Made by a program: the position numbers and the translations under genes. Positions 1,435-12,345 of a stretch of DNA of 64,000 nucleotides are shown here, one piece after another. Location of the stretch: sequence record OM386654.1. One strand, written 5' to 3'. The stretch is from Escherichia phage vB_EcoM_ESCO9. The notes under the pieces were generated by a model, which saw nothing but the letters and a program-made list of their open reading frames with translations, had not been told where the DNA came from and searched no databases. The stretch's first letter is position 1; each line of letters opens with the position of its first letter.

Positions 1435-2595
1435 ATGTTTACAGTATTCGGCAATCAAATCTTTCTGCGTCAGAAATCTGGTACAGATATTGAAGAAATT
1501 CCAGCAGGAACTTTTGGTGTAGGTGTTACTCAAAGTGGTGAGTTCTTCCTGTATCCTAAAAACGATATGGAAGTCCCTTCAGTAACATACGGTGATACTG
1601 ATGATAAATCAGAACGTATTATCAAAACGTTCCTTAGCCGCAAAGGTAAAAACACAGGTGTTCTCCTTGAAGGTACGAAAGGTAGCGGTAAAACTTTGCA
1701 AGCTAAAATGCTGTCTTCTGCTCTTCGTGAAATGGGTATTCCTACTATTTCTATCGGTAGTGCTTTTAATGGTGAAGGCTTTATCAATTTTATGTCTAAA
1801 ATCACACAACCTGTGATGATTATGATCGATGAATTTGATAAACTGTATGCTGAAAAAGATGCACAAGATGGTTTGCTTACCCTGCTGGATGGTGTTGGTG
1901 GCTACGACAAACTGTTTGTATTGACTAAAAATGATGGTTATGTATCAGAATTTTTGCGTAATCGTCCTAGCCGTATTTTCTACAGTTTTAGCTATAAGAA
2001 ACTACCTAAAGCTACTATGGATGATTATCTGGCTAAAAATCTGGAGAACAAAGCCTTCTTACCAGATTTTGAAACGCTTTATAATCTCTCCGTGGATTTG
2101 AACTTTGATATTGTTCAGTCATTAGTAGAAGAACTTAACCGTTACCCTAATGACAAATTCTCTGATGCACTTGCATTGATGGGTATCAGTATTACTGAAC
2201 ACCGCTATGCTGCAAAAGAGGTTAAACTTCTGAAAGTTAACGGTGTAGATCGTACAGGAGATGTTTCGTCAGATACCGATATTGACGGTATGACAGCACA
2301 AGGTTTGTTTAGCGGTAATCGTTATGTTGTAGCTGTAGACCATAAACTAGGTGAAGAGCATCTTCCTGAAATGGAAGGGATTGTTACCGTAGAAGATAAA
2401 GATGAAGAAGGTGATTACTACTGGGGTGTAGACCGTATCTTGCTAACGTATGATGAAAAACACATTCGTACAATGGGTGGTGACGGCTATCACTTTATGT
2501 TCACCGATGATAAAGGTAACAACATTGAAGTTGTTATTAAAAACAAAGAACGTAAAAACTACACAGAGTATGTGTTTGGTGGTCGTTCTTACTAA
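1435..2595 (+). CDS. P-loop ATPase (AAA-like), function unknown
   Basis: Walker A GTKGSGKT and Walker B-like MIMIDEFD; RBS GAGGAG; followed by GAAA-loop hairpin. Confidence 0.5.
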   Translation: MFTVFGNQIFLRQKSGTDIEEIPAGTFGVGVTQSGEFFLYPKNDMEVPSVTYGDTDDKSERIIKTFLSRKGKNTGVLLEGTKGSGKTLQAKMLSSALREMGIPTISIGSAFNGEGFINFMSKITQPVMIMIDEFDKLYAEKDAQDGLLTLLDGVGGYDKLFVLTKNDGYVSEFLRNRPSRIFYSFSYKKLPKATMDDYLAKNLENKAFLPDFETLYNLSVDLNFDIVQSLVEELNRYPNDKFSDALALMGISITEHRYAAKEVKLLKVNGVDRTGDVSSDTDIDGMTAQGLFSGNRYVVAVDHKLGEEHLPEMEGIVTVEDKDEEGDYYWGVDRILLTYDEKHIRTMGGDGYHFMFTDDKGNNIEVVIKNKERKNYTEYVFGGRSY

Positions 2596-2603
2596 GTGAT
2601 AAA

Positions 2604-2628
2604 AGGAGGCGAAAGCCTCCTTTATTTA
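2604..2628 (+). terminator. Stem-loop (AGGAGGC-GAAA-GCCTCCT) followed by T-rich run
   Basis: Perfect 7-bp stem, GNRA-type loop, TTATTTAT downstream of ATPase stop. Confidence 0.45.
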
Positions 2629-2629
2629 T

Positions 2630-2833
2630 ATGGAGGGTATTATGGATCATTATTTTGTTTTTAAAGATAAAGTTGATACCGCAGGTGGTCACGTTGCTAA
2701 AAATGATCGTGACATTAAAGAAGTATTAGGAGATCTGATTAACATTTTAGAACAAAAAGAGTTGCTTTTAGATAAGGATATTGCTAGACTTCTTGGTGTG
2801 GGGATAAGTGACATACAAAGATTACCATTCTAA
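2630..2833 (+). CDS. Hypothetical protein (67 aa)
   Basis: ORF in co-directional gene array; no recognisable motif. Confidence 0.3.
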   Translation: MEGIMDHYFVFKDKVDTAGGHVAKNDRDIKEVLGDLINILEQKELLLDKDIARLLGVGISDIQRLPF

Positions 2834-2845
2834 AGGGGGAAGAAA

Positions 2846-3001
2846 ATGCTTACAGATGATGAATATAAAGCTATCCAAGAAAAACTAACGGAGCTTGAAA
2901 TTCTTGCTGTCAATATTAAAGATCAATCACATGCTGGAAAGTTACTACATCAAGAGATCAATAAAATTAAGCAGATGATATTCTTTTGGACGGAGGATTA
3001 A
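2846..3001 (+). CDS. Small hypothetical protein (51 aa), not in ORF track
   Basis: ATG preceded by strong RBS AAGGGGGAAG; fills otherwise empty gap; stop overlaps next gene region. Confidence 0.3.
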   Translation: MLTDDEYKAIQEKLTELEILAVNIKDQSHAGKLLHQEINKIKQMIFFWTED

Positions 3002-3003
3002 AA

Positions 3004-3660
3004 ATGACTGTTAAGCATATTTCTTTTGATGTATGGAATACTCTTATTACTGCTAATCCTTTGTATGCAGAAGAACGCAACAAGGTTATTGCCGAGTATG
3101 CCTCTTGTTCTGAGGCAGAAGCAGCTACTGTTTATAAAGAGGTAAAAACTCTCTTAGATTTAAAAGCAGAAAAAGGCATTTGTGGAACGTCTAAGGATGC
3201 TTGGGTAACACTTTCTACTCGTTTGAACATTGATCTTGACAAAGTGGATGGGTTAAAAAGAGATTGTTTGGCAATGTTTATAAAACATCCTCCAACATTG
3301 AATCCTGAACTTTGCAAGAAGTTGGAAGAGCTAAGTTCAACCTACTCTTTGAGTATTAAGAGCAATACTAATTTTGTACCAGGTAGTTTCTTAGCTGTAT
3401 ATTCTGGTTTAACAAAATTACCATTCGACTTTATGCATTTTTCTGACGAGTTTTGCTTGTGTAAACCAGATCCTAGGTTTTTTAAACTCTCTTTTGATGA
3501 AATGGTGACGTTTGATCTCGCACCAGAGGAGATTTTACACGTTGGAGATAGTTTGATTTATGATGGAAAAGCTGTTGACATAGGGATGAAGTTCTGTCAT
3601 ATTATTAATCCAGAAGACTTGTTGGCTAAACTTAAAAAAGAGGAACTTATTAATGCGTAA
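3004..3660 (+). CDS. HAD-superfamily hydrolase/phosphatase-like protein
   Basis: FDVWNTL N-terminal motif, CKPDPRFF (HAD motif III KP-D-P) and GDSLIYD (motif IV); RBS GGAGG. Confidence 0.6.
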   Translation: MTVKHISFDVWNTLITANPLYAEERNKVIAEYASCSEAEAATVYKEVKTLLDLKAEKGICGTSKDAWVTLSTRLNIDLDKVDGLKRDCLAMFIKHPPTLNPELCKKLEELSSTYSLSIKSNTNFVPGSFLAVYSGLTKLPFDFMHFSDEFCLCKPDPRFFKLSFDEMVTFDLAPEEILHVGDSLIYDGKAVDIGMKFCHIINPEDLLAKLKKEELINA

Positions 3661-4510
3661 TCAAATTCAACATTTTGCTAATACTTTTACTAACCTGAAG
3701 GAAGCAAAATTTAACATTGCAGATTATTCCAAACTAAAGTTTGGTAGTAACCAGGCAGCAAAAAGAATGGGGCGCATTCTGGCTGAAAGTTTCTTTTCTA
3801 AGTATGAAGAACGACTGGTAAATGAAAGTTTTGTTGTTATTCCATCTCCATATAACTATGTGAAAAATGCAGCTACAGTGTTATCTGAACATTTTGTAGA
3901 TCACCTCAACTACCTAATCTCTATCAAAGGTGGTAAACCAGTGGAGTGGGATATCGTTCATCGTAAAGTGAGCTATATCAATGATTATGGATTTCTTAGC
4001 AAAGAAGATCGTAAGGCTTTGATCGATGGTGACACTTTCTCTATCAATCGTGATTTCTGGGGTAATAAAACTCTGATTTTCATTGATGATGTTAATATTA
4101 CAGGAACGCACGAAGAAAAACTTATTGAAATTTTAGACAAAGAAGGTGTTGAAAACGATACGTTTTTCCTGTACTTTGCAAAGTATGAAGGTACAGAAGC
4201 CAACACCGAAGCTGCACTTAACTTCAACTATATCAATAACCTGGCAGCTTTTATTAAGATGATTAAGCAAGAAACTGATGCTAAATGTTTGGTTCGTCCT
4301 ATTAAGTATCTAATGAGTCAAAGCGAAGTTGATTTTAAAATTGCACTTTCACAGCTTCCTTTGTATTATGTAGAACAACTGTTCTTTGGTTGCCTTGCAG
4401 AAGGCTACAATAACATTGAAAAATATAAAGAGAACTTTGATTTTCTACGTCAATTTTTTGAAAGCAACATTATCAATAAATCTAATGTTAAAGGGGATTA
4501 TTATGTCTAA
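3653..4510 (+). CDS. Phosphoribosyltransferase (PRTase)-domain protein
   Basis: PRPP-binding type motif LIFIDDVNITGTHEE; start overlaps HAD stop (translational coupling). Confidence 0.55.
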   Translation: MRNQIQHFANTFTNLKEAKFNIADYSKLKFGSNQAAKRMGRILAESFFSKYEERLVNESFVVIPSPYNYVKNAATVLSEHFVDHLNYLISIKGGKPVEWDIVHRKVSYINDYGFLSKEDRKALIDGDTFSINRDFWGNKTLIFIDDVNITGTHEEKLIEILDKEGVENDTFFLYFAKYEGTEANTEAALNFNYINNLAAFIKMIKQETDAKCLVRPIKYLMSQSEVDFKIALSQLPLYYVEQLFFGCLAEGYNNIEKYKENFDFLRQFFESNIINKSNVKGDYYV

Positions 4511-5219
4511 TAAAGTAATGACTTTCGGAGATCCTATCACCAATATTACAGAAAAAGATTTTGGGCGTGTAGCAACAGATAAAGATGGTGTCTTAAGAAT
4601 TCGTGTACAAGGTATTACAGCACAGGATGAATATGCTGTGTATGTTTCAGGTCTTAACTATATTGATGATCGCATTACACAAAACTTTGCACTGATCGGT
4701 GGTGTAGAGAAAATGTACTGGGAAGATGAAATTGTAACAAGTTATCCAGCAGGTATCATTGAGGTATACGGTGATCTTTTAGCAGCAGCCGAGAGAGGCG
4801 ATATAGACGCTATAGCACACTGCTGTAACTGTTTTTGCACTATGGGTAGTGGTATTGCACCAAAAATTAAAAGTAAGTGGCCTGGGGCGTTTAAAGCAGA
4901 CTGTGCCACTAAACGTGGTGATTATAAAAAATTAGGTACGTTTACCAAGTATACAGAAAACAATTTGACAATTTATAATTTATATGGACAATATGGTTAT
5001 AGTCGTCGTGAGGAAGGCAAGCGTGACCTGAATTATGAAGCTATCTATAATGCGTTAGATAGTATGGGAGACGATGTTGTATCTTCAGGCGGTAAAATTG
5101 TAGGTTTACCAATGCTTGGTTGTGGTTTGGCTGGAGGTTCTTGGAATATTGTAAAACTTATGATCGAAGAAACTCTAGTAAACAAAGGTTTAAATGTAAT
5201 TGTTTACAAACTGAAATAA
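4503..5219 (+). CDS. Macro-domain-like protein (ADP-ribose binding/processing)
   Basis: DAIAHCCNC...GSGIA and LPMLGCGLAGG resemble macro-domain phosphate-binding loops; start ATG 4503 overlaps PRTase stop; RBS AAAGGGGA. Confidence 0.45.
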   Translation: MSNKVMTFGDPITNITEKDFGRVATDKDGVLRIRVQGITAQDEYAVYVSGLNYIDDRITQNFALIGGVEKMYWEDEIVTSYPAGIIEVYGDLLAAAERGDIDAIAHCCNCFCTMGSGIAPKIKSKWPGAFKADCATKRGDYKKLGTFTKYTENNLTIYNLYGQYGYSRREEGKRDLNYEAIYNALDSMGDDVVSSGGKIVGLPMLGCGLAGGSWNIVKLMIEETLVNKGLNVIVYKLK

Positions 5220-5228
5220 GGAGAAAGT

Positions 5229-5435
5229 ATGGCAGGTGTTTTAGCAGTATTAGGTTGTTTTATTGTTGTGTTCTTGATTGTGTTAATCCCTAGTTGGCTA
5301 CTGCTTTTAGCATACAATTATATGATTGACATTATCGGCTTAGACTGGCATCATGTTCCTGTAACGTTTTGGAGTGTAGTCTGTGTGACGTTCATTCTTG
5401 CGGTACTCCGTGGTATCTTTCAATCTAACAAATAA
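5229..5435 (+). CDS. Small membrane protein (68 aa, 2 predicted TM helices)
   Basis: Hydrophobic stretches VLAVLGCFIVVFLIVLIPSWLLLLAY and VTFWSVVCVTFILAVL; RBS AAGGAGAAAG. Confidence 0.4.
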   Translation: MAGVLAVLGCFIVVFLIVLIPSWLLLLAYNYMIDIIGLDWHHVPVTFWSVVCVTFILAVLRGIFQSNK

Positions 5436-5449
5436 GAGAGGATCTTTAT

Positions 5450-5698
5450 ATGCGTAAAGTAAATGTTGAAGTGCTTGAAAAATTTATAAACACCCGTGAT
5501 TGTACTATCGGCAAGGTTTACGAGGCTATTCTCATTGAAGATGGGGATGAAGTTCCTGCCCCGTATCATGCCTTTAACGGTCAGGTTAGCAAAGTGGAAG
5601 GTGGTCTTGCTATTTGCTTTATTGATGATGTAGGTGATGCTGTAGCTTTCCCTATCATTAACAAAGAAGATAAACTTAAAATTACAGAACTGAACTAG
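5450..5698 (+). CDS. Hypothetical protein (82 aa)
   Basis: ORF with RBS GAGAGGATC upstream; no recognised motif. Confidence 0.4.
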   Translation: MRKVNVEVLEKFINTRDCTIGKVYEAILIEDGDEVPAPYHAFNGQVSKVEGGLAICFIDDVGDAVAFPIINKEDKLKITELN

Positions 5699-5726
5699 TT
5701 GACTTTCTTTAAAAACAGTTTATAGT
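5699..5726 (+). promoter_or_regulatory. Sigma70-like promoter candidate (TTGACT-16-TATAGT) upstream of terC-like gene
   Basis: Near-consensus -35 and -10 hexamers with 16-nt spacer. Confidence 0.35.
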
Positions 5727-5738
5727 ATAAGATATAGA

Positions 5739-5757
5739 GCGGAGGATTGTCCTCCGC
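5739..5757 (+). other. Stem-loop in putative 5' UTR of terC-like gene (GCGGAGG-ATTGT-CCTCCGC), no U-tract
   Basis: Perfect 7-bp inverted repeat between promoter candidate and RBS GAGGAG. Confidence 0.35.
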
Positions 5758-5775: not shown

Positions 5776-6753
5776 ATGCAACTGGGTTTCCCAATTATTG
5801 ATGTGGTTGTTTTAGTGGGTATTTTAGTGTTGTCGATTTGTATTGATTTCTTTGGCCACAGAGAAAACAAAGAAATTTCATTTAAATCTGCAATTGGTTG
5901 GTCAATTTTTTGGATTGGGGTATCATTAGCCTACTATGGTTTTGTATACTTCCAGCACGGTGCTGATTTTGCGAGCTTGTTCTTGAGTGGGTATGTGTTG
6001 GAGAAATCTCTTTCTGTAGATAACTTAGTAGTATTTGTGGCAGTATTCGCAAGTTTTGGTATTAAAAGCACACACTTGCAACACAAGATTCTACTTTGGG
6101 GTATTGCAGGTGCGATTGTCTTCCGAGGTGTGTTTGTAGCAGTAGGCACTTACTTGTTGAGTTTGGGTTGGTATGTTAATATCTTCTTCGGTGCTGTCAT
6201 CCTTTTCTGTGCGGCTAAAATGGTATTCGCTGGAGATAATGATGCAGAAGTTGATTACTCTAAACACTGGGCTACTCGCATTGTTCGTAAGCTGTTCCCT
6301 GTATCTGATCAGATGGATGGTGAGAAGTTCTTCACAATCAAAAATGGTGTTCGTGTAGCAACTCCGGCTCTGGTTTGTGTGTTTGTAATGGAAATGGTTG
6401 ACGTAATCTTTGCAGTAGACTCTGTTCCAGCAGTAATTGCAGTGACACAAGAACCTCTGCTGGTGTTCTCTTCGATGCTCTGTGCAATCTTAGGTTTACG
6501 TGCTCTGTTCTTTGTTCTTAGTGTTGCACTGAAGTATTTGGTTCATCTGGAGAAAGCAGTTATCGTAGTCCTGGTATTTGTGGGTGTAAAACTGATGTAT
6601 CATCCGTTTGCAGAAACTCTGCACGCAAAAGTGAGTTTCCTGCCAGCACACATTGATCCGACGATCAGTATGTATATTGTGTTAGGTACTCTTGGGTTGG
6701 GTGTTATTGCAAGTTTAATCTTCCCTGAAAAAGAAGACCAGACTGTTGCTTAA
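5776..6753 (+). CDS. terC: TerC-family integral membrane protein
   Basis: Multi-TM protein with duplicated TerC signature: LEKSLSVDNLVVFVAVF and EMVDVIFAVDSVPAVIAVT. Confidence 0.8.
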   Translation: MQLGFPIIDVVVLVGILVLSICIDFFGHRENKEISFKSAIGWSIFWIGVSLAYYGFVYFQHGADFASLFLSGYVLEKSLSVDNLVVFVAVFASFGIKSTHLQHKILLWGIAGAIVFRGVFVAVGTYLLSLGWYVNIFFGAVILFCAAKMVFAGDNDAEVDYSKHWATRIVRKLFPVSDQMDGEKFFTIKNGVRVATPALVCVFVMEMVDVIFAVDSVPAVIAVTQEPLLVFSSMLCAILGLRALFFVLSVALKYLVHLEKAVIVVLVFVGVKLMYHPFAETLHAKVSFLPAHIDPTISMYIVLGTLGLGVIASLIFPEKEDQTVA

Positions 6754-6760
6754 TTCATTA

Positions 6761-6782
6761 AGCCCCTTCGGGGGCTTTGTTG
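6761..6782 (+). terminator. Intrinsic terminator (AGCCCC-TTCG-GGGGCT + T-run)
   Basis: UUCG tetraloop hairpin followed by TTTGTTG just after terC-like stop. Confidence 0.5.
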
Positions 6783-6985
6783 AGGTGATCTGATGGTAGT
6801 TTTACGTGTTCTTTGGATTCTGTTTGAAAATATTTGTTTTGCTTTAGGGTTATTTTGTTTGATTTTTATCTTGACAACATACATTGATAACCATACAATT
6901 ACTATCAACAGGAACGGAGAACAGATGTATTGTTTCTCTAGGGATTTTAAAAATTGTGTTGAGACTTTAAATGAGAGGGTTACAA

Positions 6986-7576
6986 ATGAAAAACATTAAA
7001 TCTTTTATTGTTGCAGTTGTTTTAGGTAGTGCATTGCTGGTAGGTTGTGATGATTCTGAAAATGTACAAAATCAACGTTACCAACAAACACCAAATCAGA
7101 TGGTAGATGAACAATATGTAAATCAGCCTGCACCTCAAGTTGTTCAAGCAGCACCTGCACAACCTTCAACAGTTGTTGTGCAAGGAGGCGGCAGTGGTTC
7201 TTCTGGTGTAGGTGAGTTTGCTACAGGTATGCTTCTTGGTCATATGTTGAGTGGTAATAGTGGCGGTGGTGGTTATAGAGATGGTGGTAGCAGCACAACA
7301 ATTATTAATAACAACGCTGCTCCTACAACTAACAGTAAAGCATATACAACACAAAAGCATAGTTTTTATGATAAACAAGGAAATACATATACAACCACTA
7401 AACAAAACACAATTAAGCAGCAAAGTGTACAAACGTATTCACGCCCATCAACAACAAAAGTGAATAGTGATTACTCTGCTCGTAAGTCTTACTCAAGCCC
7501 TATTAGCTCTTATAGTAAGTCTTCGAAAAGTTATTCTTCGTCGAAACGTAGTTTTAGTAGCTCACGTCGTCGTTAA
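6986..7576 (+). CDS. Putative lipoprotein, Gly/Ser/Thr-rich
   Basis: Signal peptide with lipobox LLVGC; low-complexity S/T/G-rich mature region; RBS GAGAGG. Confidence 0.5.
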   Translation: MKNIKSFIVAVVLGSALLVGCDDSENVQNQRYQQTPNQMVDEQYVNQPAPQVVQAAPAQPSTVVVQGGGSGSSGVGEFATGMLLGHMLSGNSGGGGYRDGGSSTTIINNNAAPTTNSKAYTTQKHSFYDKQGNTYTTTKQNTIKQQSVQTYSRPSTTKVNSDYSARKSYSSPISSYSKSSKSYSSSKRSFSSSRRR

Positions 7577-7611
7577 TAATTTAATACAGATTAAATAAGA
7601 AGGAGAAACAG

Positions 7612-8463
7612 ATGAAACTAGAAGTTGGTAAAGTATATCGCCTGGAAGGTTGGATCTTTAATCAAGAAATCCTTGAGAAGAATAAAGATGGTTTTGAGTT
7701 TGTTGGTACTACCAAGGAAAGTATGCACGATGACGAATACTGTAAATTCGTTGGTAAAAATACAGGTCAAGAACAATTTTGCTTTAAGAGCGCAATCGGG
7801 GACTATGCTTCTGTAATGCCAACACCAGAAAAGACTTCGAAGCAATATACTGTCTTTGGTGTAAAACTTGAAGAACTTGTAGAACACCCACGTTTTGAAG
7901 AGTTCAAGGTTGCTGCAATGCGCAAGCATTCTGAAATTAAAATACATAATTTGTTTGATTTAGAAGATCGGTTTGATATCTTTATGTATGATCGCAGGGA
8001 AAAGCATTTTGATGCAACGACTTCAAAATTTGCTGCAACAGAGGATATTAAAATCCTTGATGTTGATACCTTTCTTGAGAGTGTATCGTTTGTATTCATT
8101 CCTAAATACAAAAAACGTAGTGATCATAAACGTGTGAAAGGAACTCCTCGTAAGAAACGTACTGTAAACAAAGCAACTTTGCACTTCACTTCTGGTGATA
8201 AATATACTCTCAAAGGGTTTGAAAGTGTTTTATATGATGCTGGAACAGGTAATATCAAGTTTATCATTAAGGCAACCTACAAAGGTACGGTATTGCACGA
8301 AGAGGCTGTTACACTACCTGTATTCGATATCTCTCGTGTTGAGGTACGGGGTGTTAAAGAGTCCTTCGATCTGGATTTCTTAACTACTAATGCTACTGGT
8401 TATGTTAATCTGGAAGCAGATGGAGCATTTATTACTACAAATTATTTAGATATGTTTGTTTAA
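7612..8463 (+). CDS. Hypothetical protein (283 aa)
   Basis: Long ORF with RBS AAGGAGAAA; no motif recognised. Confidence 0.45.
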   Translation: MKLEVGKVYRLEGWIFNQEILEKNKDGFEFVGTTKESMHDDEYCKFVGKNTGQEQFCFKSAIGDYASVMPTPEKTSKQYTVFGVKLEELVEHPRFEEFKVAAMRKHSEIKIHNLFDLEDRFDIFMYDRREKHFDATTSKFAATEDIKILDVDTFLESVSFVFIPKYKKRSDHKRVKGTPRKKRTVNKATLHFTSGDKYTLKGFESVLYDAGTGNIKFIIKATYKGTVLHEEAVTLPVFDISRVEVRGVKESFDLDFLTTNATGYVNLEADGAFITTNYLDMFV

Positions 8464-8531
8464 TACTTAATTTGTGTTATGATGGTGGTACAGAGGTATC
8501 ACCATCTACTAAAGAATATGGAGGAAATTGA

Positions 8532-9635
8532 ATGTCCAGTCCTTTTATCAGTGCCGTAAAAAGCAAACCGTCTGAAATGAGTGTATTCACGGCAACAACA
8601 GAAAAAAGTAAGTCTTTGTTTGCTCCAAGTGCTATGGATGCAAGCCCTGTATATGCCCCTGCTGTTGCACGACCTGTACAAATGCTGCCTCCAATGTCTC
8701 GTGAAGAGATTGAACAGGTTGGTGCTGATGCAGGACTTACTCTTCGTAACCTTAATGCTGAAGTGCTTAAACACCAGCGTTCATCTCAGGGAGATGAAAT
8801 GAGTGAACGTTTAACTGCACTTATTAAGCAAGCAAAGCAACTTGATCCTAACTCTATTAAACAATCTAAAGGCTTAGGTAAACTAGTTAAGAAAGTATTA
8901 GGTATGAAAGAAGATTTGTTTGGTGAATTTGACACCATCAATAATCGTATTGAAGGTTTGGTAAAGACACTACAAACAGACTTGAAAAAAGAAGAAGATT
9001 CTTTACGATATCTGCAACGTTTAGAAGAGGCTATTGCAAAATATGCTCTTAGCTTAAACAGGGATATAGAGCTTCTAACAGCTACTTATGAAAAAGAAGA
9101 AGTTCGCCTTAATACACTACCTGAAAATGAAGTAGAAGAGCGTCAACGTACTCGTGACACTATGGATCTGCTTGAAATTCGTATTGCAGATCTGAAAGCC
9201 TTACGTTTACTGTGCGTTCAGATGGGGCCACGTGTACAAAGTATGCAGAAAGTATCTGCAAGTTTGATGCGATCAGCCCGTAATATTGTGAATAATGTTA
9301 TTCCTGCTTACTCTGCAAACTTTTCTATGTATATTGAAAGTCTACGCCAGAAGAAAGCAGCCGATACGCAGAACAATGTACTGAATGAATTTAATGCTGC
9401 TATTGCAATGGGTAGTGATCTGGCTGCACAAAACCAGATTGAAGCTACACAACTTGCTAATCGTCAAGTATTGGATATTGAAACATTGCGTCGTGATCAA
9501 GAAAACTTAGTTAAAATGTTGGAAGAAACTAACCGAATCAACACTGAAGCCCGTGCTGCTCGTATTGATTACATTCAAGAAGTGCAATCTCTTGAAGATG
9601 GTATGATTCAAACTGTTAAACGTGGTCTACTTTAA
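8532..9635 (+). CDS. Coiled-coil protein, candidate TelA/KlaA-like toxic-anion-resistance family member
   Basis: 367-aa predominantly helical/coiled-coil protein; assignment rests mainly on size, composition and position between terC-like and terD-like genes. Confidence 0.35.
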   Translation: MSSPFISAVKSKPSEMSVFTATTEKSKSLFAPSAMDASPVYAPAVARPVQMLPPMSREEIEQVGADAGLTLRNLNAEVLKHQRSSQGDEMSERLTALIKQAKQLDPNSIKQSKGLGKLVKKVLGMKEDLFGEFDTINNRIEGLVKTLQTDLKKEEDSLRYLQRLEEAIAKYALSLNRDIELLTATYEKEEVRLNTLPENEVEERQRTRDTMDLLEIRIADLKALRLLCVQMGPRVQSMQKVSASLMRSARNIVNNVIPAYSANFSMYIESLRQKKAADTQNNVLNEFNAAIAMGSDLAAQNQIEATQLANRQVLDIETLRRDQENLVKMLEETNRINTEARAARIDYIQEVQSLEDGMIQTVKRGLL

Positions 9636-9648
9636 GGAGAAATATATT

Positions 9649-9855
9649 ATGAATATTAAAATTTACAAACTGTCTGGTTCTATGATTGCTGTTCAGTATG
9701 ACAATGAAGATCGTTATGTTCTCCTCCAGGATGCTTGGTTAGATGATCCTAATGTATTCACTGTCCTGCGAGAACTACGTTCTGTCTATACCTATTCTTC
9801 TAAAGATGGTTTTGACAATTCAACGATGGAATTGGTAAAAGAGGAGAATGTGTAA
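9649..9855 (+). CDS. Hypothetical protein (68 aa)
   Basis: ATG with RBS AAGGAGAAA. Confidence 0.4.
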   Translation: MNIKIYKLSGSMIAVQYDNEDRYVLLQDAWLDDPNVFTVLRELRSVYTYSSKDGFDNSTMELVKEENV

Positions 9856-10055
9856 TGAGTAAAGATATTCACTTAACTCGTGAAGAATTGCAAACCATTA
9901 TGGAAGATGCTTTCATTGATGGTTGGAAACAAGGTCAAGAATCAGATTGGTATGATGCCGAAGATTTTTTGTATTATCATATGACTGCACCTGTAGACGA
10001 GCAAACACACTCTGAAACAACTTTGGCTTTAATTGATCTTAAGGCTGGTGTATAA
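9855..10055 (+). CDS. Hypothetical protein (66 aa)
   Basis: ATG with RBS GAGGAG, start overlaps previous stop. Confidence 0.4.
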   Translation: MSKDIHLTREELQTIMEDAFIDGWKQGQESDWYDAEDFLYYHMTAPVDEQTHSETTLALIDLKAGV

Positions 10056-10618
10056 TGGGGTGTTTTAGTTTCTTGTGCAAAGAGTCTGGTAATGCTGCTC
10101 TTTCTACCTCTTTCGATGGCTCTCCTTGCTACCTATTTCTTTTGAAAGGTGGTAAGGTTGTCGAAGAGATGTATGGGAATTATGATAGCTATGGTAGTGT
10201 TTTCTCTAACGAAGAAGATAAACATGGCAATCGTAAAAGATTTAAGTGGTCTATGCCTTGGGAAGAAGTTTGTAATTTGATGTTCTCTTCCGATCTTGGA
10301 GATGGGATTGCTCTAGTATTAGAAGAGCACTTTACAGGCGAGATCCCAACAGAAAGATCTGAAGAAGACCCTAACCAGGGTTGGGGTGATGGGGAAGAAG
10401 ATCCAGATTGCTTCTTCAGCACTGAAAATAATAAATTTAAACGTGTTGACAATCCTTACCACAAAGTGCATAATACTTGCATTGAGACAGAAGAAGACTC
10501 AAAGCTAGAAATTGAAGATGATTTAGTTGTAACTATCTCTTTAAACGAGTTGCAAAAAATCACTAGAGAGGCTTTCTATTTAGGTTGGAAAGTAGGTAAA
10601 GGAGGAGATAGTGCTTAA
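10055..10618 (+). CDS. Hypothetical acidic protein (187 aa)
   Basis: ORF in coupled array; Asp/Glu-rich. Confidence 0.4.
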   Translation: MGCFSFLCKESGNAALSTSFDGSPCYLFLLKGGKVVEEMYGNYDSYGSVFSNEEDKHGNRKRFKWSMPWEEVCNLMFSSDLGDGIALVLEEHFTGEIPTERSEEDPNQGWGDGEEDPDCFFSTENNKFKRVDNPYHKVHNTCIETEEDSKLEIEDDLVVTISLNELQKITREAFYLGWKVGKGGDSA

Positions 10619-10880
10619 ATTTAATATCAAAGACGACAAATCAGATGAACCTAAATGTTTTGGAGAACTTGACGTAGGTGATACATTTGTATATTATGTT
10701 GCCTATCAAGATTCTGGTTTAGATACATTCAGAAATTTAGTGTTTATTAAGGTTAATACAAACCAAGCAATGTGTCTGAACGGTTCGCAAAGAGGTCAAC
10801 TTAGCTGTATTTCGTATGATACAGAAATGGTAGAAGTGGATTTAGAAGTTACTAACATTACACTCAGAAAGGAGAAATAA
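10611..10880 (+). CDS. Hypothetical protein (89 aa)
   Basis: GTG start with RBS AGGAGGAG. Confidence 0.4.
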   Translation: MLKFNIKDDKSDEPKCFGELDVGDTFVYYVAYQDSGLDTFRNLVFIKVNTNQAMCLNGSQRGQLSCISYDTEMVEVDLEVTNITLRKEK

Positions 10881-10881
10881 T

Positions 10882-11676
10882 ATGTCCAATAAAATCAGTC
10901 TTAAAAAACGTCAAGAAACTCTTACCGTATCTCTGCGTAAGAAAAAGATTAACGATGTTGTTCTTCGTGTCGGTAGTGCCTTAGATATTTCGGGTAGTAT
11001 GTGTGAGCTGTATCGTGATGGCACTGTTAGTGATTTTGTAGGTAAACTGCTGCCGTTTGGTATGAAGTTTGATGATAATGCACAGATTGACATGTGGGCT
11101 TTCAATAGTTCTTCTTTTGAACTGCCTCCTGCAACGGCTGATGTATATGATGATTATGTCGGCTCTTGTATGTCTAATGTTTGCATCAATGGTGGTACAG
11201 CTTATGCCCCAGTAATGCAAGAGATCTATGATACATACTTCGGTAGTGTACCTATGAAAAATATTACACGCGAAGTCGTTGAGTATGAAGAAGTTCCGGC
11301 TAAGGGTTTCCTTGCTAAACTAACTGGTAAAAAAGAACGTGTAGAAGTTACACGTACTGTTGTAGAACAGGTTGTAGATACTGATGCACAAGTTGATCGT
11401 ACTCCTGCAATGATTTTCTTCCAAACTGACGGGGAGAACATGGATACTTCAGCAGTACGTAGTTTGCTGAACAAACACCGCAACACTCCTGTTTACTGGT
11501 TTATGGTTGGTGTAGGCAATGCAAACTTTAAATTCCTGAAAGACTTGGCAAAAGAATACGATAATGTTGATTTTATCGGTATTGCAGATTTGTCCTTGTC
11601 TGACGAAGAACTTTACGATAAACTGCTATCCGAAGAGTTTGGTGAGTGGGTTAAAAAATTTGGAGCAAAAGCGTAA
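10882..11676 (+). CDS. vWA-domain protein (TerY-like) with TerD-like N-terminal segment
   Basis: MIDAS motifs LDISGSM, GGTAYAP and FFQTDGENMD; N-terminus MSNKISLKKRQETLTVSL resembles TerD N-terminus. Confidence 0.55.
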   Translation: MSNKISLKKRQETLTVSLRKKKINDVVLRVGSALDISGSMCELYRDGTVSDFVGKLLPFGMKFDDNAQIDMWAFNSSSFELPPATADVYDDYVGSCMSNVCINGGTAYAPVMQEIYDTYFGSVPMKNITREVVEYEEVPAKGFLAKLTGKKERVEVTRTVVEQVVDTDAQVDRTPAMIFFQTDGENMDTSAVRSLLNKHRNTPVYWFMVGVGNANFKFLKDLAKEYDNVDFIGIADLSLSDEELYDKLLSEEFGEWVKKFGAKA

Positions 11677-11683
11677 AAAACGC

Positions 11684-11711
11684 TTGACTTTGTAGAAAAG
11701 ATTAGTAAAAT
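11684..11711 (+). promoter_or_regulatory. Sigma70-like promoter candidate (TTGACT-16-TAAAAT) upstream of terD
   Basis: Consensus-like hexamers, 16-nt spacer, about 40 nt upstream of terD start. Confidence 0.4.
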
Positions 11712-11748
11712 AGACAACGTAAATTAACAACAAAGGAGATAATAAATT

Positions 11749-12345
11749 ATGACTCAGAAAATTTCCCTGAAAAAAGGTTCTAGCGAAAAAGTTTCTCTGA
11801 AAAAGATTGCACCAGCACTGAAACGCATTCGTCTGGAATTCTCTTGGAAATCTAACGAAAAACTGGATCTGGATGTTAGTGCTCTGATTTGCCGACACAA
11901 TGCATCTGGTCTGCCGGAACTGTTGTCTCCTCGCCACCTGGTGTGCTACGCGCAGAAATTTGATCCTGAACGTTCTACTTTTGCAGGTGAAGATGTTCGT
12001 GATGGTGTAGGACAGATGGAGCAGATTGATGTTACACTGGATAATATCTCTGCTGAAGCACAGGAAATTGCATTCGTAATTACTATTGATGACGAAACGG
12101 GTAAGAAACGCCTTGGTCACGCTACCGAAGGTTTCCTTAAAATCTTCGATGATGAACGTAATGTTGAACTGCTGGATTTTGACTTCTTGGCTCCAGAACT
12201 TGCAGGTAATACCATTTGCCACGTTGCCTCCCTGGTGCGGGAAGATAGCGAATGGAAACTGAAAGCATATGGTGTAGGTAAAGCTGGACTTGACATTTAT
12301 GATGTAGTTAAAGCGTTTGGCGCTGGCGACGATTGGTTCGAGTAA
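11749..12345 (+). CDS. terD: TerD-family protein
   Basis: ISLKKG...KVSLKK, LDLDVSALIC, FVITIDD, EWKLKAYGVG align in order with the TerD family pattern as recalled from E. coli TerD. Confidence 0.85.
   Translation: MTQKISLKKGSSEKVSLKKIAPALKRIRLEFSWKSNEKLDLDVSALICRHNASGLPELLSPRHLVCYAQKFDPERSTFAGEDVRDGVGQMEQIDVTLDNISAEAQEIAFVITIDDETGKKRLGHATEGFLKIFDDERNVELLDFDFLAPELAGNTICHVASLVREDSEWKLKAYGVGKAGLDIYDVVKAFGAGDDWFE

Follow-up and report, generated by a model that had tools for sequence, protein, structure and literature searches.

Do genes that overlap stop to start in a phage genome also work together? The question is raised by three consecutive genes of Escherichia phage vB_EcoM_ESCO9 (sequence record OM386654.1), of which a stretch of 64,000 nucleotides is called the window here. 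All three lie on the + strand, and they encode a HAD-superfamily (subfamily IA-like) hydrolase of 218 aa (3004..3660; ATG 3004, TAA 3658–3660), a PRTase_3 protein, i.e., a ComF-like type I phosphoribosyltransferase (PRTase), of 285 aa (3653..4510; ATG 3653, TAA 4508–4510), and a protein with a macro domain, referred to as the macro protein (4503..5219; ATG 4503, TAA 5217–5219); they correspond to gp187, gp186 and gp185 of phage phi92, respectively. A sequence-only reading of this stretch had taken the overlaps to imply stoichiometric co-expression, and had proposed that the three enzymes together make or destroy an (ADP-)ribosylated small molecule or remove ADP-ribose marks, by which they could oppose ADP-ribosylating host toxins or NAD-derived immune signals, or serve as the metabolite arm of the Ter module. 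The comparisons described here, which are drawn from sequences and structure models, point instead, with a probability that we put at roughly 0.6, to two functionally independent units, namely a Ter-type HAD–PRTase pair and a macro protein of the AdfM type.

Junctions and distribution of the three genes

The three open reading frames (ORFs) and their stop-to-start overlaps are exactly where the sequence-only reading had placed them, and its assignment of the products to the HAD, PRTase and macro domain families holds as well (Pfam, PHROG 14393, PF15610, PF01661). Both junctions are 8-nt overlaps with the pattern ATGNNTAA, that of HAD and PRTase being ATGCGTAA at 3653–3660 and that of PRTase and macro ATGTCTAA at 4503–4510, each on the + strand, and every start has its own Shine–Dalgarno-like sequence (GGAGG at 2992–2996 for HAD, GAGGA at 3640–3644 for PRTase and AGGGGA at 4492–4497 for macro). 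An alternative in-frame ATG of the macro gene at 4485, which is without a Shine–Dalgarno sequence, is used by some GenBank records; the relative P0122 begins in register with ATG 4503. The step from overlap to functional link did not survive a comparison with the rest of the genome: of the 45 consecutive same-strand junctions annotated in Bas62, a near-identical phage, 16 are overlaps, four of them of 8 nt, so overlaps are routine in this genome and cannot serve as a mark of common function.

What evolution has kept at the two junctions is not the same. The HAD and PRTase genes mostly overlap or lie within ~25 nt of each other in the 35 loci compared, and this overlap or near-abutment is kept across phyla, with overlaps of 1–32 nt (from 1 nt in XaC1 through 8 in phAPEC8, 14 in pRL10, 17 in CcrColossus and 29 in a Hymenobacter plasmid to 32 in a Rhizobium phage). 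The PRTase–macro overlap is lineage-specific; the same junction is a 13-nt gap in phAPEC8 and a 1-nt gap in locus L012, and is split by an intervening gene in loci L015 and L016. Tight coupling is conserved solely for HAD and PRTase.

The distribution of the genes follows the same division. Loci were collected from GenBank phages, the contigs behind protein hits, IMG/VR viral contigs, plasmids and representative bacterial genomes, the last of which yielded 15 loci only, in a scan with phage-derived peptide patterns by which divergent cellular PRTase_3 genes are undersampled. In all 35 non-redundant loci, the HAD gene lies directly upstream of the PRTase gene on the same strand, while the identity of the PRTase to that of the window varies between 31% and 81% and the hosts and carriers include E. 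coli, Klebsiella, Xanthomonas, Rhizobium and Caulobacter phages, uncultivated viral contigs, Rhizobiaceae and Bacteroidetes. The macro gene adjoins this pair only at a PRTase identity of 65% or more to the window protein, i.e., in Stephanstirmvirinae-like genomes. Among the 27 more distant or cellular loci, a macro gene was found within 10 kb in two, at 6 and 8 kb, and in neither is it adjacent. Conversely, macro homologues were found by tblastn in 2,972 phage records versus 156 for the PRTase, which makes the macro family about 20 times more widespread. Vequintavirinae (GAP31, phiTE), for example, have a 43–45% identical macro protein in the early region, and no HAD, PRTase or Ter genes were found near it in the loci examined (~6 kb on each side). 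In the window, the macro gene is flanked by the PRTase gene and by a gene for a 68-aa membrane protein, and a tblastn search for this small gene gave no match in Vequintavirinae. Because its adjacency to the pair is limited to one subfamily, its junction is variable, and the gene is far more widespread and often found alone, macro is best read, on these comparisons, as a unit functionally separate from the HAD–PRTase pair.

The HAD–PRTase pair

The first protein of the pair matches PHROG 14393 (7e-119) and NCBIfam HAD-IA families, and reaches 26.3 bits (1.1e-5) with the Pfam Hydrolase model, just under its cut-off of 26.4. The four HAD motifs are conserved in 22 homologues: FDVWNTL as motif I (nucleophile D9; window 3028–3042), SNTN as motif II, CKPD as motif III and GDSLIYD as motif IV. 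The residues that HAD phosphatases have in these motifs (Asp in I, Ser/Thr in II, Lys in III and acidic residues in IV) are all present, and motif IV, which binds the metal, has the form seen in phosphatases (GDxxxxD) and not that of dehalogenases. The residue at the D+2 position, however, is Trp11, and the Asp expected there of phosphatases and mutases is absent. The protein of the best PDB match, 2om6, has the same FDVWNTL; it comes from an archaeon and is uncharacterised, with the label “probable phosphoserine phosphatase”.

The second protein matches PF15610 (PRTase_3) over model positions 14–264 of 264 (1.5e-41; 143 bits versus a gathering score of 28.7), and no other Pfam family was matched by it in the Pfam scan, which gives the subtype that the sequence-only reading had wanted determined by profile and structure searches. 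Its phosphoribosyl pyrophosphate (PRPP) loop, LIFIDDVNITGTHEEK, has the two acidic residues followed by xxTGxT and is invariant across the family; the protein has the PRTase fold, to which a family-specific helical domain is added at the C-terminus. The structure model is confident and has ComFC as its closest fold; in a profile search of the PDB, the match was confined to the PRPP loop. ComFC, although the closest solved fold, is just 13% identical to the window PRTase, whose family differs from it in always being paired with HAD and in having its own C-terminal helical domain. A role in NAD+ reconstitution was also considered. The NARP1 and NARP2 pathways are defined by a Nampt/NadV-type PRTase with Nmnat, or by Adps with Namat; no Nampt/NadV or Nmnat domain was found among the cluster products scanned, and NAD salvage of the NARP1/NARP2 kind was rejected, a ComF-like type I PRTase_3 protein being of the wrong class.

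Which system does the pair belong to? When the neighbouring ORFs of the 35 loci were clustered, Ter genes recurred (TerC in 14, and TerD, TelA and vWA-TerF in 11 each), and no third recurrent partner of the pair was found beyond them. In the window, the pair lies upstream of a Ter cluster that spans 5776–12345, with genes for the membrane protein TerC as its first member (5776..6753, +; PF03741, 1.2e-38), TelA (8532..9635, +; PF05816, 5e-34), a vWA-TerF-like protein (10882..11676, +; PF10138, 7e-39) and TerD (11749..12345, +; PF02342, 5e-28). The association extends to bacteria: on a Hymenobacter plasmid, the neighbours of the pair are three TerD and two vWA genes and those for a PP2C phosphatase, a kinase and a DUF475 protein, which make up a Ter cluster of the classical type, and in two Bacteroidetes metagenome-assembled genomes it stands beside TerD and TerC. 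The PRTases and HAD enzymes of Ter systems have been described as an arm for the biosynthesis of nucleoside or nucleotide derivatives, and were noted in phages (Iyer et al. 2021, PMC7824862; Iyer et al. 2017, PMC5512222); the biosynthetic module goes back to Anantharaman, Iyer and Aravind 2012, as summarised in the same two papers. The pair resembles that module in combining a PRTase_3 member with a HAD protein and in being clustered with TerC, TelA, vWA-TerF and TerD, as it is in other phages and in Bacteroidetes. It differs from the classical module in having a single PRTase and in the Trp at D+2 of its HAD protein. ATP-grasp enzymes are components of the classical Ter cluster; neither an ATP-grasp protein nor TerB was detected among the products scanned. 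The PRTase is not the one of the classical IncHI ter clusters, since classical enterobacterial ter plasmids gave no tblastn match to the PRTase and plasmid matches were confined to Rhizobiaceae and Hymenobacter. In the Rhizobiaceae loci (L038, L040, L042, L043, L046, L047), a ClpP-like protease of ~250 aa is encoded just 3′ of the PRTase, and these copies of the pair therefore probably sit in prophage remnants.

Since the pairing is found in 35 of 35 loci and Ter genes are the sole recurrent neighbours, the HAD and PRTase_3 proteins are best read from their sequences as an obligate two-enzyme pair that belongs to the computationally defined Ter biosynthetic module. To this extent the suggested “metabolite arm of the Ter module” was well aimed, for the pair; macro probably does not form part of it. 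By the chemistry expected of the two families, the PRTase would join PRPP to a nucleobase-like acceptor, yielding a ribosyl-5′-phosphate compound, and the HAD protein would then strip the phosphate to leave a nucleoside-like product, which might work with the TerC, TelA, vWA-TerF and TerD proteins encoded just downstream. That the product of Ter systems is nucleoside-like is itself a published prediction (PMC7824862). The published proposal for Ter is one of signalling and envelope remodelling, either for the exclusion of rival phages or for the stress tolerance of the infected cell.

The macro protein

The macro protein consists of an N-terminal module of ~85 aa (4503..4757, +) and a macro domain of the ALC1-like (TARG1/DarG/SCO6735) class (4758..5219, +). 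The domain matches PF01661 (2e-7; 31.3 bits versus a cut-off of 22), and the macro fold with its ADP-ribose-binding cleft was confirmed by an AlphaFold2 model, in which the predicted local distance difference test (pLDDT) exceeds 90 for residues 85–238, and by Foldseek, for which the target-normalised template modelling (TM) scores were 0.91 for TARG1 (4j5r; E 5e-12), 0.82 for BT1257, 0.80 for DarG and 0.77 for SCO6735. SCO6735 (5e3b) is the best PDB match by sequence (3e-15). The domain also matches the macro part of the NCBIfam DarG model NF048014 (5.5e-13; model residues 4–147 of 338, at 48.9 bits versus a cut-off of 250) and the PADLOC DarG model (1.1e-13; model residues 6–144).

The residues of the cleft allow the class to be narrowed. 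Asn109 and Gln163 are invariant in 67 homologues, and residues 206–212 form a GCGLAGG loop. The catalytic Lys of TARG1 (K84) and DarG (K80) is replaced by Gln163, and the position of TARG1 D125 is the Ala of GCGLAGG; the protein thus matches the SCO6735 subclass instead of TARG1 or DarG, with Gln163 aligned to Gln85 and Asn109 to Asn27 of SCO6735. In that enzyme, which is able to rescue cells from DarT, Gln85 and Asn27 are needed for the removal of thymidine-linked ADP-ribose from DNA (PMC9411070). The window protein shares with the SCO6735/BT1257 subclass a Gln in place of the catalytic Lys of TARG1 and DarG, the positioning Asn, the diphosphate loop GCGLAGG and a mobile loop that is long and basic, and differs from SCO6735 in having Cys for Val25 and Ser for Lys34, in its phage rather than bacterial origin, and in its N-terminal extension.

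Phage homologues point in the same direction. The macro protein is 30% identical to T4 Tk.4 by BLASTP (9e-18), and the family hidden Markov model (HMM) finds Tk.4 at 1e-35; Tk.4 has been named AdfM, and its deletion sensitises T4 specifically to DarTG2 (bioRxiv 10.1101/2025.11.20.689424). PhiKZ gp104, a more distant homologue, is matched by the family HMM at 5e-10, with its N23 aligned to N109, and this AdfM removes DarT2 marks in vitro, the N23A mutant being impaired (PMC13309987). Like the two AdfM proteins, the macro protein is a phage-encoded member of the DarG/TARG1-like class of macrodomains that stands alone, has kept the catalytic Asn and has no DarT gene next to it. Unlike them, it has the extra ~85-aa module, which is absent from Tk.4, gp104 and the phAPEC8 orthologue, and it adjoins Ter genes. 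The DarG antitoxin of DarTG2 systems resembles the window protein in its macro domain, to which the DarG models match, and is unlike it in its C-terminal DarT-binding domain, in the darT gene next to it and in having Lys where the window protein has Gln; the score of the window protein with the NCBIfam DarG model is also far below the cut-off. A phage-borne DarTG system was rejected, as there is no darT nearby and no DarG C-terminal domain.

Given its class, the conserved Gln and Asn and the homology to T4 Tk.4, the macro protein is most likely an orphan DarG-like antitoxin of the AdfM/Tk.4 type, a predicted DNA ADP-ribosyl glycohydrolase by sequence and model. It would hydrolyse ADP-ribose from thymidine bases marked by host DarT2 on single-stranded phage DNA, and this removal would restore phage replication. 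The idea of an opposition to DarT-like toxins can therefore be kept for the macro protein. Phages Bas60–62, which are of the same genus, carry a validated NADAR factor against DarTG1, AdfN(Bas60) (PMC11825919), which indicates that the lineage is under selection from DarTG systems. The most economical reading makes macro the anti-DarTG2 counterpart of this anti-DarTG1 factor. An AdfN NADAR gene gave no match in a motif regex search of the window, and none is annotated in the near-identical phage Eryne, where the stretch examined corresponds to most of the remainder of the window.

The N-terminal module (residues 1–85) has the motif D.GR[IV]A...dG..RI ... F.L[IV]GG...M[FY]WED, and is modelled by AlphaFold2 as rich in beta-strands at low confidence (pLDDT 34–61). 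An exhaustive search of 1.84 billion representatives gave no named domain and six weak-to-moderate matches, the contigs of two of which are too short for an informative context. The module is absent from phAPEC8, T4 and most other macro homologues. In loci L015 (9502–10062) and L016 (4024–4590), it makes up the N-terminal part of a 188-aa protein that has a MazG-like pyrophosphatase (PHROG 1247, 2e-22) as its C-terminal half and is encoded between the PRTase gene and a plain macro gene of 162 aa; the module also stands alone as a protein of 71 aa (P0246) and is carried by one of 264 aa (P0244). By these sequences, the phi92-type macro protein looks as if the module had lost the MazG half and been fused to the macro domain. 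P0122 of locus L012, at 53% identity, has the same fusion, which has therefore been maintained.

Alternative readings and genomic setting

Several observations weigh against the division into two units or against the functions assigned to them. The adjacency of macro and PRTase is kept throughout Stephanstirmvirinae, where the gene directly 3′ of the PRTase always encodes a nucleotide-derivative hydrolase, either macro or the N-terminal module with the MazG-like enzyme, and this could hint at a looser functional tie; the module is the sole observation that keeps this weak link between the PRTase and a downstream hydrolase alive. The D+2 residue of the HAD family is Trp in 20 of the 21 aligned members that cover the position and Tyr in the other one. 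The second Asp is the general acid/base of HAD phosphatases, and a simple role as nucleotide 5′-phosphatase is therefore uncertain for a HAD protein that is without it; judged by its sequence, a phosphatase step is plausible, not secure, and may be atypical. As to the PRTase, ComFC is not known to have PRTase activity, and ComFC of H. pylori reportedly binds single-stranded DNA. No Ter gene is detectable within 10 kb of the pair in about half of the distant phage loci and in all the Rhizobiaceae loci, so that the Ter link is frequent, not universal. Finally, DNA need not be the only substrate of a macrodomain of the SCO6735 type, because SCO6735 also strips ADP-ribose from proteins (PMC9411070). 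How far do these points carry the rival explanations? The proposal that HAD, PRTase and macro form one stoichiometric pathway for an (ADP-)ribosylated small molecule, for instance to neutralise NAD-derived immune signals, could draw on the three consecutive genes with their 8-nt overlaps between two hairpins, on the order HAD–PRTase–macro kept in all Stephanstirmvirinae-like loci, on the ribose-phosphate chemistry common to the three enzymes and on the module carried by two different hydrolases just after the PRTase. It is nevertheless quite improbable, since the macro gene is absent nearby in 25 of the 27 loci outside the subfamily and 6–8 kb away in the other two, the PRTase–macro junction is not conserved, overlaps are routine in this genome, the macro family, with 2,972 records to the 156 of the PRTase, is usually found alone, and its class is that of DNA-ADP-ribose hydrolases. 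A broader variant would have the Trp-bearing HAD and the PRTase_3 protein generate a riboside or ribotide signal or an antimetabolite autonomously in many large phages, with or without Ter, and would make the N-terminal module an adaptor that recruits nucleotide-derivative hydrolases to the PRTase or its product, the three genes of this lineage then being a regulated make-and-erase unit for a nucleotide signal; this we regard as very improbable.

Two further alternatives concern one unit each. The macro protein might have substrates other than DNA, either proteins that carry ADP-ribose or a derivative of ADP-ribose in solution (ADPr-1''-phosphate, O-acetyl-ADPr or a Thoeris-type signal): the name “phosphatase” that the family bears in GenBank and PHROG goes back to the A1pp motif, the breakdown of soluble ADP-ribose signals is the role proposed for phage macro domains by Iyer et al. 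(PMC7824862), the activity of SCO6735 on proteins is a precedent, and the Poa1p fold is among the Foldseek matches. Poa1p and MacroD types, however, rank below SCO6735, BT1257, TARG1 and DarG, which are best by sequence or fold, the Gln and Asn for hydrolysis of thymidine-linked ADP-ribose are conserved, and the homologue Tk.4 is required by T4 specifically on DarTG2 hosts, which leaves a substrate other than DNA unlikely. As for the pair, it might be a unit in its own right that salvages nucleotides or cofactors or manipulates PRPP, and that lies near Ter genes by chance, or its PRTase might be a non-catalytic, ComFC-like protein that binds single-stranded DNA. The loci without Ter genes within 10 kb (XaC1, Rhizobium phages, CcrColossus and several viral contigs, besides those of Rhizobiaceae) speak for a unit of its own, as do Rhizobium phage TM21B, where the pair is beside an NMN adenylyltransferase/Nudix protein, PurA and DHFR, and the ComFC fold of the PRTase. 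This alternative is rendered unlikely by the recurrence of Ter genes, and of no others, across independent lineages that include Bacteroidetes, by the invariant PRPP-binding motif, which argues for catalysis, and by PRTase_3 as the sole Pfam match, which offers no tie to enzymes of the Nampt/NadV type; in the genomes without a nearby Ter cluster, such genes may also lie elsewhere, beyond the 10-kb flanks.

The Ter-type pair and the AdfM-type macro protein, then, share a genome and probably a transcript. The window region is 98–99% identical to many Escherichia phages of the genus Justusliebigvirus, e.g., AV123, Paula and JohannJBalmer/Bas62, and the genome is a Justusliebigvirus (phi92-like) of the subfamily Stephanstirmvirinae. 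HAD, PRTase and macro are probable early genes in one transcription unit of seven genes (2630–5698), the limits of which come from a consensus scan only: it is bracketed by a terminator-like hairpin 3′ of the AAA ATPase gene (2602..2623, +; a terminator is annotated at the equivalent place in phage Paula) and by a GC-rich hairpin between orf5450 and terC (5739..5757, no strand given), with a promoter-like site at 5699–5726. Upstream of HAD, the window contains the AAA ATPase gene (1435–2595) and two small ORFs. On the unrelated short contig L033, a protein with the N-terminal module (192–986) is encoded two genes 5′ of a homologue of this ATPase (1525–2700; 3e-98 to window 1435–2595), a hint that the module and the ATPase travel together. 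In phAPEC8-like and related phages (L003, 7745–8350; L016, 1924–2529; L015; L018), the gene directly 5′ of HAD is one of 201 aa that is absent from the window; its product belongs to PHROG 22504, has no Pfam match, and has HFHLTL and HIKT motifs that are reminiscent of 2H phosphoesterases. Interleaved in the Ter cluster are three genes without assigned function (6971–7576, 7612–8463 and 10055–10618), one of which encodes a Ser/Gly-rich protein with a lipoprotein-type signal (LVGC) and the others proteins of 283 aa and 187 aa without a Pfam match; phAPEC8 has kept all three, which may therefore be accessory components of Ter that are specific to phages.

Some records of related phages call for a comment. 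The three genes are already labelled “putative HAD-like superfamily protein”, “putative phosphoribosyltransferase” and “putative macrodomain protein” in some GenBank records. In others (PQ529420.1 of phage Eryne, 47620–49083 and 54750–55463; PP895363), automated annotation gives “HNH endonuclease” for genes at the positions of the TerD and vWA-TerF homologues, and a “Zot-like toxin” feature is listed under the PRTase/macro match; these labels are probably mistaken and will be passed on to further records. In Bas62, the UvrD/Rep helicase (L001, 3439–6213; upstream of the window start) is annotated with an intein, which phage Paula is without. The GenBank entries MG065645, MG065689 and MG065650 are named Campylobacter phage A145, A110a and B15, with C. 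jejuni as the stated host. Proteins of A145 and A110a are 98–99.6% identical to those of phi92-like E. coli phages, and the B15 PRTase is 64.7% identical to that of the window, the same level as that of phAPEC8; the probable explanation is a wrong Campylobacter host label or a contaminated preparation.

Both units are of kinds already described, nothing in them would overturn current understanding, and the locus is of practical use as a test case. Two smaller points are new: the Trp at D+2 in the HAD family, in which a conserved Trp in place of a catalytic Asp makes for a concrete biochemical oddity of the active site, and the exchange of partners of the N-terminal module (macro here, a MazG-like pyrophosphatase in relatives), which is a minor architectural variant. 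For the Ter system, the prediction of which dates from 2012, the phage version is reduced to one PRTase and one HAD protein, and this obligate and highly conserved pair is a convenient minimal system for the identification of the predicted Ter metabolite. If macro is an AdfM, phi92-like candidates for therapeutic phages would carry matched counter-measures, which bears on the prediction of host range: the NADAR factor AdfN versus DarTG1 and macro versus DarTG2 would form a two-pronged anti-DarTG set like that of T4.

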